Shown here: in pieces, positions 54,730 to 58,675 of the stretch
How positions within the stretch are numbered: position 1 is the stretch's first letter
Layout of the letters: each line of letters starts with the position of its first letter
NCBI GenBank assembly: GCA_947445025.1
Contig: CANFCB010000001.1
Coordinates: 2,816 to 66,815 of the forward strand
DNA: 64,000 bases
Direction: 5' to 3'
Source: Myxococcales bacterium
Lineage (GTDB): Bacteria; Myxococcota; UBA727; JABDBI01
Translations under genes and position numbers: made by a program
Notes under the pieces: model-generated
Told to the model about the DNA's origin: nothing
What the model saw: the letters and a program-made list of their open reading frames with translations, nothing else
The model's database searches: none

Positions 54730-55191
54730 TCAGGTTTTGCTTTGAATAACCGCTAATAAAATAGCTTCGGAAACGAGTTCGCCGTCTACGCTGGCAAAAC
54801 TTTTTAGTTTGCAAACGTTTCTTTTAAGCGCGATAATTTCAGCGCGTATTTCAAGTCGGTCGCCAGGGACCACCGGTTTTTTAAATTTGGCTTCATCGAC
54901 GCCTGCCAAATAAGCGATGTGAGTGTCAGGATGAAAAGCACCAGAGTAAAAAACCAAAATCCCGCCGCATTGTGCCATGGCTTCAATTTGTAAAACCCCG
55001 GGCATAATCGGAAATCCTGGGAAATGGCCGTTAAAAAAAGGTTCATTGCAGGTCACATTCTTATAAGCTTTGATATATTGGCTTGGCACTAATTCTGTCA
55101 CTTTATCGATGAGCAAAAAAGGATAACGGTGCGGCAAAATAGCGGAAATCTCCGCGAAGCAGAGAGGAAGTTTAATATCAGCGTGTTCCAT
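54730..55191 (-). CDS. fabZ: 3-hydroxyacyl-ACP dehydratase
   Basis: Hotdog fold with [19 protein letters not shown] active-site region. Confidence 0.9.
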
Positions 55192-56230
55192 GATCTTTTA
55201 AGGCCTCCGAAAGAGCGTCTATGCGCTTTTGTAAATTCCTAACGTCTTTTTGATAGGCATGCAATTTTTTTTGTGCGGCACAGCTACGCAAATAATTCAT
55301 ATGTGCAACCGCAGGATTTCCTGAGACGATTTCGTTTGCTGATACATCGCGAAACACACCGGCAGTGGCGCTGATGCGTGCGCCCTGCCCGACTTGTCGA
55401 TAAGGTGCGACGCCAGCTTGTCCACCAATAGCAGCTTCATCGCCGATATTGACGTGTCCAGCCAGGCCAACTTGTGCGACGACGACCGCGTTTTTACCAA
55501 TGGAAACGTCGTGACCGATTTGCACCAGGTTGTCGATTTTGCTGCCGCTACCAATACAGGTATTTTCCAACATGCCTTTATCGATACAGGTATTGGCGCC
55601 GATTTCCACATCGTCTTCGATATAGACATTTTTTGTTGACGCTATTTTGATATTGCGTTCATTTTCAGGATAATAAACAAAACCGTCACCACCCAAAATA
55701 GTGCCCGGTTGTAAAATCACGCGATGGCCAAGACGGGTCCCGGACATGACCACACTGCCCGCTCCAATAACACAATCTTCGCCAATACAAACATTATCGT
55801 CAATAAAAACAAAGGGCATGATGCGTGTGCGTGATCCGATATCTGCGCTTCCAATGTAAGCCATGGGAAAAACACAGACATCTTTATCTAATTGAGCCTC
55901 AGGGTGAACATGGGCGCTTTGGTGAACACCCGCAAAATGACTTTTGGGTCGAGGAGGATGCAATAAGTGCATTGCTTTTTGCAAGCCAGCATAAAAATCA
56001 GCGATGACAATCAAGGTGCAAGAGAGCAGGTCTGCATAATCAGCGGCGTCGTTTTCAGAAATAAGCAAGCAGCCAGCCTGACTTGTAACAGCTAGACGCC
56101 GATCACGCGGTTCCAGCATGAGACTTAAGTCTGATTTGCTAGCACGGTCCAATCTACGCAGCGAGGTGACTTTGATGTTGTCGCCCCAGTGTCGTCCTAC
56201 TAGTCTGTCGGCTAAATCTTGTGTGAGCAT
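55178..56230 (-). CDS. lpxD: UDP-3-O-(3-hydroxyacyl)glucosamine N-acyltransferase
   Basis: N-terminal LpxD domain then an extended left-handed beta-helix of hexapeptide repeats. Overlaps fabZ by 14 nt. Confidence 0.9.
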   Translation of the reverse strand: MLTQDLADRLVGRHWGDNIKVTSLRRLDRASKSDLSLMLEPRDRRLAVTSQAGCLLISENDAADYADLLSCTLIVIADFYAGLQKAMHLLHPPRPKSHFAGVHQSAHVHPEAQLDKDVCVFPMAYIGSADIGSRTRIMPFVFIDDNVCIGEDCVIGAGSVVMSGTRLGHRVILQPGTILGGDGFVYYPENERNIKIASTKNVYIEDDVEIGANTCIDKGMLENTCIGSGSKIDNLVQIGHDVSIGKNAVVVAQVGLAGHVNIGDEAAIGGQAGVAPYRQVGQGARISATAGVFRDVSANEIVSGNPAVAHMNYLRSCAAQKKLHAYQKDVRNLQKRIDALSEALKDHGTR

Positions 56231-56241
56231 TCGTTCTCCAA

Positions 56242-56769
56242 TTAAAAGGAGTACTCATTTTCTGCAGTTGAATCTGGTGGATCCAAGTACGCTGCATTGC
56301 CAGACAAAAACAACTCGTATAGGTTACCTTTAGAACTTCCACAAGAAGGGCATTTCTTAATACGGACTCCTTTGCAAGCATGACATAATACAAGCTCATG
56401 ACATAGGCTATGCCCAATTGAGGGGATATTGATTTTGCAATCAGAACAGCACTCTAACAAATTAATATCCCGGTAAAAGGTAACAGGCGCTCGACAGCAT
56501 GGGCAGCGTGTTCGCCCTCTTTTGGACGCATTAACATGTTTACTCGAACACACTGAACATAATATCAAATGTCCGCAATCACTCACTGCGTTAGCACAAT
56601 TCTCCCTGCAGGCTACGCAGATGTTATTACATATGTCATCAATGGTAAAAGCCGTAGCACGGGTGCTTGGTGAGAGCAATTTAAGACTACTGCATGCTAA
56701 GAGCGGATGGACGTTGAGTATGAAAAAGAAGCACAGAAGTGAGGCCGTTTTTTGTAAGTGCGTGTGCAT
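56242..56769 (-). CDS. RING-finger protein paralog 1: signal/anchor segment, IAP-type C3HC4 RING, second Cys/His zinc module
   Basis: RING-HC spacing CVAC-x10-CGH-x3-CSVC-x14-CPCC. Second module CSDC-x8-H-x2-C-x5-CHAC-x7-CPSC. N-terminal …CFFFILNVHPLLAC. Start overlaps the paralog 2 stop (TAATG). Confidence 0.6.
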   Translation of the reverse strand: MHTHLQKTASLLCFFFILNVHPLLACSSLKLLSPSTRATAFTIDDICNNICVACRENCANAVSDCGHLILCSVCSSKHVNASKRGRTRCPCCRAPVTFYRDINLLECCSDCKINIPSIGHSLCHELVLCHACKGVRIKKCPSCGSSKGNLYELFLSGNAAYLDPPDSTAENEYSF

Positions 56770-57488
56770 TAATCTCCAAATCCAGAATGGTTTTCATCAG
56801 ATTGTTGAGAATATGTCTCACTAGCTTGCTGAGAATATGTCTCACTAGCTTGCTGAGAATATGTCTCACTAGCTTGCTGAGAATAGATGTCGTCAAGTTC
56901 CTCAGGAGCAGCCTCCTCCAACATACGCCAAGGGTCCTTTTCAAGGTCAATTAGAGAATCGTCGATATTTCTCGTCCCAGATAAATACAATTCGATCAAT
57001 TTTCCTTCAGCGCTATGACAGCAAGGACAGCCATAATGAAGAGGTTTTGTTTTGCAAGCATGGCACAAAATAAGCTTACGACATCTATTATGACCAATGG
57101 ATGCTAAATTGGTTTTGCAATGAGTGCAATGCTCTAACAGGTACATGTCCTGGTAAAAAGTAGCTGGACCGGCACAGTATGAGCAGCCTGGCATTGCTTC
57201 CCCTCCGTAGGCGCATGTATGTATATGACGTAATGTACAAGCACTGCATTGCACTAAATGCCCGCAATCGCTCCATACCGTAGCGGGGTTCTCGAAGCAG
57301 ACAAGGCAGATGTTATTACGAAAATTCTCAAGGGCAACGGGTGTAATATCGCTGCTTCCTGCGAGAAGTTGCAGTACATTATTCAGAGCAGGAGGCAGAG
57401 CAATCGCTGGGCGTTTAGGACTGCCGCATGCTAAAATTGGATGGATATTAAACAAAAAAAGAAAAAAAATGATTAGACCTTGCTTCAT
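56769..57488 (-). CDS. RING-finger protein paralog 2 with C-terminal (SQQASETY)n repeat and acidic tail
   Basis: CLVCFENPATVWSDCGHLVQCSACTLRHIHTCAYGGEAMPGCSYCAGPATFY fits C3HC4 exactly and resembles IAP/MDM2-type RINGs (CGHLV.C..C … CP.C…TFY). Second module CTHC-x8-H-x2-C-x5-CHAC-x8-CPCC. 4-nt overlap with paralog 3. Confidence 0.6.
   Translation of the reverse strand: MKQGLIIFFLFLFNIHPILACGSPKRPAIALPPALNNVLQLLAGSSDITPVALENFRNNICLVCFENPATVWSDCGHLVQCSACTLRHIHTCAYGGEAMPGCSYCAGPATFYQDMYLLEHCTHCKTNLASIGHNRCRKLILCHACKTKPLHYGCPCCHSAEGKLIELYLSGTRNIDDSLIDLEKDPWRMLEEAAPEELDDIYSQQASETYSQQASETYSQQASETYSQQSDENHSGFGD
56803..56890. repeat. 24-bp tandem repeat (~3.6 copies) within RING paralog 2
   Basis: ttgctgagaatatgtctcactagc repeated; encodes SQQASETY x3.5 on the minus strand. 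Confidence 0.8.
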
Positions 57489-58051
57489 TCATCTTCTCCA
57501 AATTCCCATGGTTCGTCTTCTCTTGGTGGATTTTCGTCGACGGAGGGAAAATATAATTCAACGAAATTTCCTTCAGGGCTTTTACAATAGGGGCAATGGG
57601 ATCTTTTATTCTTTATACAAGAATGGCATAAAACCATTTTTGCGCAGTCACTATGACCGACAGAGGCAATGTTCTCGCGGCATTCTACGCAATGATTAAC
57701 TTGGGAAATTTCTCCATAAAATGTAATATCTGTTCTGCATATAGGACATCTCGGCACCGGTCCGGAGTTGTGGGTAATGCTGGAGCAATCCGAGCAGTGG
57801 GATAAATGGCCACAGTCGGTCCATACCACCGAGGGTTTTGCGTAGCAAATTATGCATAAATTTTGAGAAAAATCTTCCATTGTAGGAAGTCGAGGGCGTT
57901 TGATTATATCCATAAATTGGATGTAAGGATTTGGTGGAATTATTTCTGCGTGAGATAGGTGAGGCACTATGCGCCGTTTTTGAATGGCGCCTGCTAAAAT
58001 AAGATGAGGGTTTGCTAAAAAAAGGAAAAGAAGAATTAAACCTTGCTTCAT
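57485..58051 (-). CDS. RING-finger protein paralog 3
   Basis: CIICYAKPSVVWTDCGHLSHCSDC…CPICRTDITFY RING. Second module CVEC-x8-H-x2-C-x5-CHSC-x7-CPYC. Acidic C-terminus (EDEPWEFGEDE). Likely start at MKQGLILLFLF rather than the upstream TTG. Confidence 0.55.
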   Translation of the reverse strand: MKQGLILLFLFLANPHLILAGAIQKRRIVPHLSHAEIIPPNPYIQFMDIIKRPRLPTMEDFSQNLCIICYAKPSVVWTDCGHLSHCSDCSSITHNSGPVPRCPICRTDITFYGEISQVNHCVECRENIASVGHSDCAKMVLCHSCIKNKRSHCPYCKSPEGNFVELYFPSVDENPPREDEPWEFGEDE

Positions 58052-58135
58052 AAAAAAGCCCCGCAGTCTGCTTAAAAAACATGAACTGATCAAACAAGCT
58101 GCGGGACATGAAGGATATTTCTTTATTTCTTTACT

Positions 58136-58675
58136 TTATTTCTTTTTCAGCACAGCTTTTTTGCTGGCATGAACCTGATTGTAACGACGAATGGCTTCAT
58201 TGGTCAAATCAAGAGAAGGCGTGATGGAAAGAACAGCGGTTTCATTTTTATTCAAAATTACTGTATAGCCGCCTTCAACTCTGAGCGCATTTAATACACT
58301 GCCCATTTTTTGCAAAATACCACCCATGGCATCTTGTTGACGTTTGACCATTTCTTGTTGCATGGTGACATAAAGTTGTTGGACTTCAGCGATTTTTCTT
58401 TGCAATTCCATGCCTTTTTCTTGTTTGACGGCGGGCTTCATGATGGCCGCTTGGCTTTCAAAAGATTCCTGCATTTTTTTCGCTTCATCTTGTTTCTTGT
58501 CCAAGATTGCTTGTTTGGCTTCGAATTCTCTTTTCAAGTCGGCTTTTGCGCGTGCGCCTTCGTCTACTTCGTTAATGGCGCGCTCTAGATCCACGGCACC
58601 AAGCTTAATATCGTCAGCAAAGGCAAAAGAGCTGAATAGAAGAGCAAAACAAATTCCAAATTGTATCTGTCGCAT
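58136..58675 (-). CDS. skp: Periplasmic chaperone Skp (OmpH)
   Basis: Signal peptide, ~160-aa coiled-coil OmpH-like protein immediately upstream of the lpxD-fabZ cluster, the conserved position. Confidence 0.75.
   Translation of the reverse strand: MRQIQFGICFALLFSSFAFADDIKLGAVDLERAINEVDEGARAKADLKREFEAKQAILDKKQDEAKKMQESFESQAAIMKPAVKQEKGMELQRKIAEVQQLYVTMQQEMVKRQQDAMGGILQKMGSVLNALRVEGGYTVILNKNETAVLSITPSLDLTNEAIRRYNQVHASKKAVLKKK

Follow-up and report, generated by a model that had tools for sequence, protein, structure and literature searches.

In Escherichia coli, the genes bamA, skp, lpxD, fabZ and lpxA, followed in some cases by lpxB, form the canonical envelope cluster, and lpxD and fabZ are normally essential. 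Eukaryote-like RING ligases, in turn, are to our knowledge few in bacteria and normally stand alone as effector genes. NleG and LubX are bacterial RING/U-box E3 ligase effectors. A further example is SneRING, an E3 ligase effector of the intracellular bacterium Simkania negevensis, and SNE_A08690 and SNE_A08700 are neighbouring RING paralogs (PMC12591485). Here we describe a locus in which both kinds of gene meet. The window, a stretch of 64,000 nucleotides of contig CANFCB010000001.1 (assembly GCA_947445025.1) from an uncultured Myxococcales bacterium, carries three genes for small RING proteins, called RING3, RING2 and RING1 in their order on the minus strand, between skp and lpxD. A literature search found no description of RING genes in a skp-lpxD cluster.

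RING genes at the skp-lpxD junction

The order on the minus strand is skp, RING3, RING2, RING1, lpxD, fabZ, lysS, lolCE and lolD (Table 1). An initial annotation, made from the sequence of the window, had placed three RING genes on one strand between skp and lpxD, with gaps of about 85 and 11 nt at the two ends. Gene identities from Pfam and NCBIfam and the coordinates confirmed this arrangement; the products of lpxD, fabZ and lysS pass the NCBIfam equivalog cut-offs and those of lolCE and lolD fall just under them. The gaps read as 84 nt from the skp stop codon to the RING3 ATG and 11 nt from the RING1 stop codon to the lpxD ATG, the latter including a Shine-Dalgarno (SD)-like GGAG. Neighbouring RING genes overlap (ATGA at RING3/RING2, TAATG at RING2/RING1), lpxD and fabZ overlap by 14 nt (55178-55191), and the gaps 3′ of fabZ measure 55 nt (fabZ-lysS), 3 nt (lysS-lolCE) and 3 nt (lolCE-lolD). 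The spacing between skp and lpxD thus comes to 1.9 kb, filled by the three RING open reading frames (ORFs) and a hairpin. The 188-residue gene call for RING3 is also found in public assemblies.

The locus retains part of the canonical arrangement, which is also the type of layout found in the outgroup loci L014 and L016. The genes skp, lpxD and fabZ share a strand and keep their usual order, fabZ comes straight after lpxD and overlaps it, and the Lol genes and lysS accompany the cluster as they do in L016. In contrast to the canonical cluster, one to three RING genes and the hairpin part skp from lpxD in the window and its relatives; pyruvate kinase, a protease and a small ORF take the place of bamA upstream of skp; lpxA, lpxI and lpxB are not downstream; and lysS-lolCE-lolD follows fabZ, whereas in L016 it precedes bamA.

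The same junction was found occupied in four other lineages. In L009, whose LpxD is 75-76% identical to that of the window, pyruvate kinase is followed by skp, one RING gene and lpxD. The metagenome-assembled genome (MAG) L007, labelled 'Myxococcales bacterium' (LpxD identity 70-71%), has skp, one RING gene and lpxD-fabZ-lysS-lolCE. L011/L012 (48%) has pyruvate kinase, skp, two RING genes and lpxD-fabZ-lysS-lolCE-lolD, and L017/L018 (GCA_027619095.1, 53%) has an ORF cut by the contig end, which may be another RING copy, followed by one RING gene and again lpxD-fabZ-lysS-lolCE-lolD. The skp products are 82% (L007), 81% (L009) and 62% (L011) identical to that of the window. The junction is empty in the RING-less relatives L013, where pyruvate kinase, skp, lpxD and fabZ follow one another with overlapping genes, and L015, where 2 nt separate skp from lpxD, as well as in the outgroups L014 and L016; in all four of these loci skp and lpxD overlap or lie at most 10 nt apart. 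As a synteny background we used a metagenome scan with the LpxD alignment of the clade, whose listed matches were all generic LpxD loci of 31-43% identity. Among the matches listed, 80 unrelated lpxD loci were surveyed; of the 20 that had a detectable skp, none had a gene-sized gap between skp and lpxD and none a RING match. A scan of genome contigs gave one true relative, L007; another candidate relative, L008, was discarded as a spurious hexapeptide match. Database identities of LpxD fall from 76% to 71% and 48%, and then to about 40% for unrelated phyla, which shows how poorly this lineage is sampled. In a neighbour-joining (NJ) tree of skp and lpxD, the RING-bearing lineages form a clade with 80.7% bootstrap support, with L013 and L015 outside it.

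We consider the following explanation probable as a whole. The ancestor of a small group of uncultured lineages, labelled Myxococcota or Myxococcales at NCBI, would have gained between skp and lpxD a gene for a Sec-exported, mostly lipobox-bearing tandem-RING protein of the type found in inhibitors of apoptosis (IAP), and a GC-rich hairpin with a U-tract would have arisen past skp in the same lineages. The RING gene would then have been inherited vertically at the junction while evolving very fast, and independent tandem duplications would account for three copies here and two in the L011/L017 lineage, with one in L007 and in L009. The RING genes, lpxD and fabZ would form a coupled unit, so that RING expression would be tied to that of lpxD-fabZ. 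The intrinsic-terminator-like hairpin, whose 3′ arm includes the SD-like sequence of RING3, would set this unit apart from skp, and transcription arriving from skp, or from a possible promoter in its 3′ end, would be attenuated rather than free-running. The displacement of lpxA would be an earlier and independent rearrangement of the envelope cluster.

A rival reading, which starts from the initial annotation, takes the triplet to be a recently acquired host-interaction module within the skp-lpxD-fabZ operon, read straight through from the skp promoter. The junction is indeed empty in the outgroups, the RING domain is eukaryote-like, and the short gaps and common strand fit such a reading. The comparison with relatives largely refutes it, since the same junction is occupied in the four other lineages, down to 48% LpxD identity. 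The RING genes are also not foreign in composition. Their GC content (0.41-0.43), GC content at third codon positions (GC3, 0.35-0.41) and synonymous-codon log-likelihood (-1.07 to -1.19) fall inside the distribution of the 59 genes of the window (0.438±0.024, 0.412±0.035 and -1.12±0.06, respectively). No inverted repeats or target-site duplications were found flanking the triplet, and Rfam and flank checks revealed no integrase or tRNA at the insertion site; Rfam gave no family at gathering score, not even a tRNA, across the 64-kb window. All close relatives found carry RING genes, with no patchy presence, and a conserved terminator-like hairpin stands past skp. A recently acquired genomic island was therefore rejected, on the grounds of typical composition, absence of scars and presence in all close relatives, and the recent-acquisition reading as a whole is very unlikely. 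By the criterion that the initial annotation itself had set, the RING genes are an old resident family, probably inherited vertically at this junction. They are an insertion with respect to the ancestral layout, which is empty in L013-L016 and in the 20 surveyed loci, and not a recent one: the RING insert and the loss of lpxA from this site are true departures from the norm, and both are traits of the lineage.

The window derives from a MAG, and an assembly or binning chimera could in principle mimic such an arrangement. Five other contigs of the same species (99-100% identity) have the identical order wherever they reach the junction, three of them in full (L001, L002 and L004), and a sixth covers RING1-lpxD only. 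The order is repeated at 99-100% identity in independent NCBI, ENA and Logan assemblies, and RING-bearing junctions occur in other lineages from unrelated samples. The probability of a chimera is practically nil, because the contigs of the same species repeat the order. A further MAG, GCA_947491275.1, is about 99.8% identical to the window and differs from it in the number of repeats in RING2.

Table 1. Features of the skp-lolD region, in their order along the minus strand
Feature	Position	Strand	Evidence
skp (OmpH-family periplasmic chaperone)	58136..58675	minus	Pfam OmpH, 4.8e-26, 92 bits (cut-off 32.4)
Sigma-70-like promoter candidate in the 3′ end of skp, TTGACC-18-TACAAT	58178..58207	minus	10/12 positions matched
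Terminator-like or attenuator-like hairpin	58058..58107	minus	-22.7 kcal/mol; 9-bp outer stem with 7 G-C pairs
U6 tract directly 3′ of the hairpin, abutting the RING3 ATG (58049-58051)	58052..58057	minus	Read from the sequence
RING3, first copy, 188 residues	57485..58051	minus	Pfam zf-C3HC4_3, 7.4e-15, two stretches, 54.9 bits (cut-off 27)
RING2, second copy, 239 residues	56769..57488	minus	Pfam zf-C3HC4_3, 1.9e-5, 24.8 bits, slightly below the cut-off of 27
24-nt tandem repeat (YSQQASET) in the RING2 tail	56802..56885	minus	TRF, 3.5 copies, 98% matches
RING1, third copy, 175 residues	56242..56769	minus	Pfam zf-C3HC4_3, 6.4e-7, 29.5 bits (cut-off 27)
lpxD	55178..56230	minus	TIGR01853 equivalog, 287.6 bits (cut-off 242.5)
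fabZ	54730..55191	minus	TIGR01750, 178.8 bits (cut-off 155)
lysS, at the usual position of lpxA	52917..54674	minus	TIGR00499, 623.9 bits (cut-off 427.6)
lolCE	51156..52913	minus	Best match TIGR02212, 343.9 bits, below the cut-off of 362
lolD	50487..51152	minus	Best match TIGR02211, 280 bits, below the cut-off of 307.75

A conserved hairpin and the probable coupling of the RING genes

The gap between skp and RING3, reported in the initial annotation as having no obvious terminator, reads GTCCCGCAG...CTGCGGGGC, then TTTTTT, then the RING3 ATG, and it does hold a conserved hairpin and a U6 tract, which begins 79 nt past the skp stop codon. A GC-rich stem-loop with a U-tract 3′ of a same-strand stop codon is, in sequence, the layout of an intrinsic terminator. 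The 101-nt region around it folds with a z-score of -3.06, and one of 200 shuffled sequences folds as well. A standard terminator scan overlooked the hairpin, whose loop and bulge are beyond its limits, and a permissive one returned 245 sites, mostly intragenic; a stricter custom scan of both strands was used instead. Among the eleven sites that it found in the window, the skp-RING3 hairpin is the most stable, and it is one of three distinct sites just downstream of a same-strand stop codon, the other two being after the neighbouring protease gene and after the gene at 2418-3257. The hairpin sequence is single-copy in the window and not a dispersed repeat.

The 9-bp stem is kept in all four RING-bearing lineages with gap sequence (the window, L007, L009 and L011). 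Of the 36 pair cells of this comparison 35 are paired, one column shows a compensatory change from G-C to A-U and there are several G-U changes, and in every case a U-rich run and then a start codon follow the stem. In the RING-less relatives skp and lpxD overlap and the hairpin is absent. The conserved hairpin offers a well-defined candidate regulatory element that is open to direct testing. The skp stop codon lies inside a 13-nt tandem duplication (CTTTATTTCTTTA, 1.9 copies, window 58121-58145), through which the last codons and the stop codon of skp are repeated just 3′ of the gene. In L007 (7420-7440), the ATG after the hairpin is followed by AAA TAA and the RING ORF restarts at a TTG; the ORF read from this TTG has no charged n-region, and the start may be decaying or re-initiating.

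A different role for the hairpin was considered. It could be a translational or stability element, hiding the ribosome-binding site of the RING gene or protecting the 3′ end of the skp mRNA, or RING-lpxD-fabZ could have a transcript of its own, beginning at the promoter-like site within skp, for which the hairpin would act as leader attenuator. RING3 has a single SD-like element, a GGGG in the 3′ arm of the hairpin 7 nt before the ATG, and in all four lineages the start codon directly follows the U-tract. Some 70 nt upstream of the hairpin, the window and L009 have a promoter-like site with 10 of 12 matching positions, which in L009 reads CTGACA-18-TACAAT. The motif, however, falls in codons under protein constraint: it overlaps the conserved LDLTNEAIRRYN coding motif, which RING-less relatives have too, and is a candidate only, being inseparable from this constraint, with site counts that are not above those of shuffled sequences and so give no evidence of function. 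In addition, a GC-rich stem with U6 behind it, a few tens of nucleotides past a stop codon, is the canonical layout of an intrinsic terminator, and the hairpin resembles the site that follows the neighbouring protease gene. We regard this other role as possible although somewhat unlikely, and prefer the reading as a terminator-like attenuator, by which transcription entering from skp would be expected to be attenuated; the efficiency of termination is something that we infer from the sequence.

Coupling to the essential envelope genes, as had been proposed for the whole triplet, therefore holds on one side only. The RING genes are likely co-transcribed with lpxD-fabZ, given the overlapping stop and start codons and the 11-nt gap with its GGAG, and for the same reasons RING3, RING2, RING1, lpxD and fabZ would form one translationally coupled unit, which probably extends to lysS-lolCE-lolD. 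Co-transcription with skp would require read-through because the hairpin separates skp from RING3. A scan for sigma-70-like sites on the minus strand found none between the hairpin and lpxD (56231-58178). In E. coli, rplL-rpoB has a partial terminator that serves as an internal attenuator within an essential operon. The situation here is alike in that a terminator-like hairpin separates genes of the same orientation, of which those downstream are presumably essential, a likeness that implies partial read-through setting different expression levels. The difference, as predicted from the sequence, is that in this locus the next start codon comes directly after the U-tract and its SD-like sequence is part of the stem. 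Compared with the first reading of the locus, there is then no recent insertion, the triplet would be a local expansion and the link to skp is probably attenuated.

Evolution and possible function of the RING proteins

The RING genes are by far the fastest-evolving genes of the cluster. Their products are 36-41% identical to those of L007 and L009, and in the same comparison identities are 91-92% for pyruvate kinase, 81-82% for skp, 84% for lysS, 87% for lolCE and 70-75% for LpxD. For LepA of the window (28682-30478), the two closest database relatives have identities of 98% and 95%. LpxD itself is unusually divergent in the clade (70-71% between the window and L007, compared with 98% for the closest LepA relative), which suggests that this lipid A acyltransferase is also evolving fast. 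RING3 had no match but itself in a word-indexed homolog search, and when 1.84 billion representatives were searched exhaustively with a profile, only five proteins fell below 1e-10, all in the RING-bearing clade.

Duplication is a feature of individual lineages. In the RING tree, the three copies of the window are monophyletic (69.5% bootstrap), RING1 and RING2 group together (97.5%) and so does the L011 pair (82.5%), which points to a local tandem expansion in the window and a separate origin of the L011 pair. The "triplet" is thus accurate for the window species and for no other, as the relatives have one or two copies. Strains of the window species vary as well: contigs L001, L002, L004 and L005 differ by indels of 24 or 48 nt in the RING2 repeat, so that through the copy number of YSQQASET the protein has 223, 231, 239 or 247 residues, and there is a one-codon indel in RING1 at about 56517. 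All indels between the strain contigs, which are otherwise 99-100% identical, are in RING2 and RING1.

The RING proteins share one layout, in which an N-terminal signal peptide is followed by an IAP/XIAP-type RING and a second RING-like unit, and the tail is acidic and contains a PDFEE-like motif. The signal peptide of RING3 ends in LILAGA, lacks a lipobox Cys and looks like a signal peptidase I site. RING2 (PILAC|GS) and RING1 (PLLAC|SS) have lipobox-like signals, and similar sequences recur in the family (LLAC in RING1, L007 and L009, ILAC in RING2, and ILAC and SYAC in L011), which places a Cys at the lipobox-like position in six of the seven aligned members. Against solved structures, the best matches of a profile of the paralogs were the RINGs of XIAP (1.1e-4) and MDM2 (about 0.01). 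The Cys/His columns, eight ligands with cross-brace spacing and predicted to bind zinc, are invariant across the seven members in both units. In BIRC7 and RNF4, a basic 'linchpin' after the last Cys activates E2~Ub; an Arg follows CPxC in six of the seven copies and an Ala in RING2. Before the second Cys of the first RING, six copies have I or V and RING1 has A; a hydrophobic residue here is the E2-contact position of characterised RINGs (PMC12591485).

The family shares with the RINGs of XIAP/BIRC4, BIRC7 and MDM2 the pattern CxxC...CGHLxxCxxC...CPxCR...F/Y. It differs from them in having no BIR domain, in its signal peptide and PDFEE-like acidic tail, and in the second RING-like unit, which is H-x2-C with a different spacing. 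Remote profile matches included other signal-peptide tandem-RING proteins and a protein with a BIR domain and tandem RINGs; one match, P0136, has a bacterial context and is away from any skp-lpxD junction. The BIR protein, P0131, encoded on a 22-kb Logan contig, combines its BIR domain with a tandem zf-C3HC4_3 RING, so that a tandem-RING layout exists in IAP-like proteins, which suggests where the bacterial family may have originated. With SneRING-type effectors the proteins share a eukaryote-type RING in a bacterium, a small lineage-restricted family and adjacent paralogs. Here, in place of known type III/IV substrates, the proteins have signal peptides of the Sec/lipoprotein type, as far as the genes tell, and two tandem RING-like units, and they are encoded within a lipid A/fatty-acid operon. 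The SPRINGs of grape phylloxera are small proteins with a signal peptide and a RING, which evolve rapidly and are duplicated in tandem in a species-specific manner (PMC6892190). Small size, signal peptide plus RING, fast evolution and tandem duplication are found in our family as well, whereas SPRINGs are insect and thus eukaryotic proteins, secreted through the endoplasmic reticulum, and their family is far larger, with 138 genes (PMC6892190). The comparison is one of analogy and not homology. A defence-system reading of the RING genes was dropped when PADLOC gave no match to the RING proteins.

A family of interaction or effector type, more than core envelope machinery, would account for the signal peptide, the small size, the fast divergence and the duplications specific to lineages, and from the sequences we infer RING E3 ligase activity, lipidation and a role in host-directed or other interactions as candidate properties. 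The proteins might instead be Cys-rich periplasmic or outer-membrane lipoproteins, held by zinc or disulfides, that serve Skp, lipid A synthesis or Lol and are not ubiquitin ligases. A signal peptide with a conserved Cys at the lipobox-like position in six of seven copies, a stable site between skp, lpxD and lolCE-lolD across deep divergence and a DsbA-like protein encoded in the same genome (18212-19111) are in keeping with that role. An envelope component is nonetheless quite improbable: the identity of 36-41% compares with 70-92% for the neighbours, copy number and repeats vary, the family is limited to a small clade whereas envelope machinery is usually conserved, and the first RING retains IAP-like E2-contact and linchpin positions. 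For the preferred interaction-type family, the significance lies in a fast-evolving, duplicating, signal-peptide tandem-RING family that an uncultured lineage has kept fixed in its lpxD-fabZ operon across deep divergence. Active E3 ligases at this site would point to an unrecognised eukaryote-associated lifestyle of the lineage, and would also be an unusual expression strategy, by which an interaction factor is tied to outer-membrane biogenesis. Carried further, the proteins would be lipid-anchored or secreted IAP-like E3 ligases, exposed on or shed from the outer membrane of a Myxococcota lineage associated with eukaryotic cells or living inside them, hard-wired to lpxD-fabZ and Lol export and made together with new outer membrane, possibly as a means of interfering, at the bacterial surface, with the ubiquitin signalling of the host. 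Hosts ubiquitylate lipopolysaccharide via RNF213 (reviewed in PMC10465799). This extended proposal is speculative and we hold it to be unlikely; a variant in which the RING fold was recruited for a ubiquitin-independent periplasmic role would be even more unusual.

Several observations weigh against the explanation proposed for the locus. The clade of RING-bearing lineages is drawn from short NJ trees, and one or two losses in place of a single gain are possible; a tree of skp alone puts the RING-less L015 inside the RING-bearing clade, with a weak support of 22%, and does not resolve this point, so a gain followed by loss is possible. Termination at the hairpin is predicted, lpxD and fabZ must be expressed, and it follows that the hairpin would have to be leaky or bypassed, or that a promoter that was not recognised lies downstream. 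Promoter-like matches are no more frequent than in shuffled sequences. The lipobox ([LVI][ASTVI][GAS]C) was read by eye, the Pro at -4 of several copies does not fit the strict PROSITE pattern, and RING3 lacks the Cys. RING2 is under the Pfam cut-off and lacks the Arg past the last Cys, and the AlphaFold2 model from the alignment of the three paralogs was uninformative (pLDDT 41). Finally, a Cys-rich zinc domain may fail to take up the RING fold in a periplasm that contains a DsbA-like protein, which is a serious difficulty for the effector-type reading.

The missing lpxA and the rearranged cluster

The statement that fabZ is followed by lysS and the lol genes and not by lpxA proved correct. 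A scan of the ORFs of 120 residues or more in the 64-kb window (the last five through the Pfam annotation of the near-identical L001) detected no LpxA-type protein. This is unusual: in 36 of the 37 surveyed loci having fabZ, among the matches listed, lpxA follows directly. LpxD is not expected to act without LpxA in the Raetz pathway, and lpxA is expected elsewhere in the genome. In the outgroup L016 the order is lysS-lolCE-lolD-bamA-skp-lpxD-fabZ-lpxA-lpxI-x-lpxB-msbA. The RING-bearing L007 (as far as lolCE), L011 and L017 have lysS-lolCE(-lolD) after fabZ, and together these orders indicate that the lysS-lol association is ancestral and that the order was permuted. Pyruvate kinase stands in place of bamA upstream of skp in the wider clade, including the RING-less L013. 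The missing lpxA would thus be a separate, older rearrangement, shared with RING-less relatives.

Upstream of skp, the window has a divergent 78-residue ORF, a trypsin-like protease gene and pyruvate kinase, and no bamA. The interval between pyruvate kinase and skp varies. In the window (58870-60303) it holds the protease, which is secreted, and the divergent ORF, whose product is Cys-rich, has a lipobox and gives a weak match to the EexN family. In L007 (3347-6258) it holds a protease and an aminotransferase-like gene, and L009, L011 and L013 have nothing between the two genes. LolCE has 585-643 residues in the clade (window 51156-52913, L011 8010-9941, L017 4248-6062) compared with 418 in the outgroup L016, owing to a hydrophobic N-terminal extension of at least about 170 residues. 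The RING-less L013, with its tightly overlapping genes, encodes a truncated LpxD of 247 residues without the N-terminal domain (2029-2772). A papain-like Peptidase_C1 gene lies near the cluster in L013, and an ankyrin-repeat gene lies near that of the L011/L012 lineage (L012 10152-11108); these neighbours may hint at a eukaryote-associated lifestyle. Far from the RING locus, at 15876-18075 of the window, a phage-integrase-family gene adjoins a KfrA_N-like gene, and the pair may be the remnant of a mobile element.

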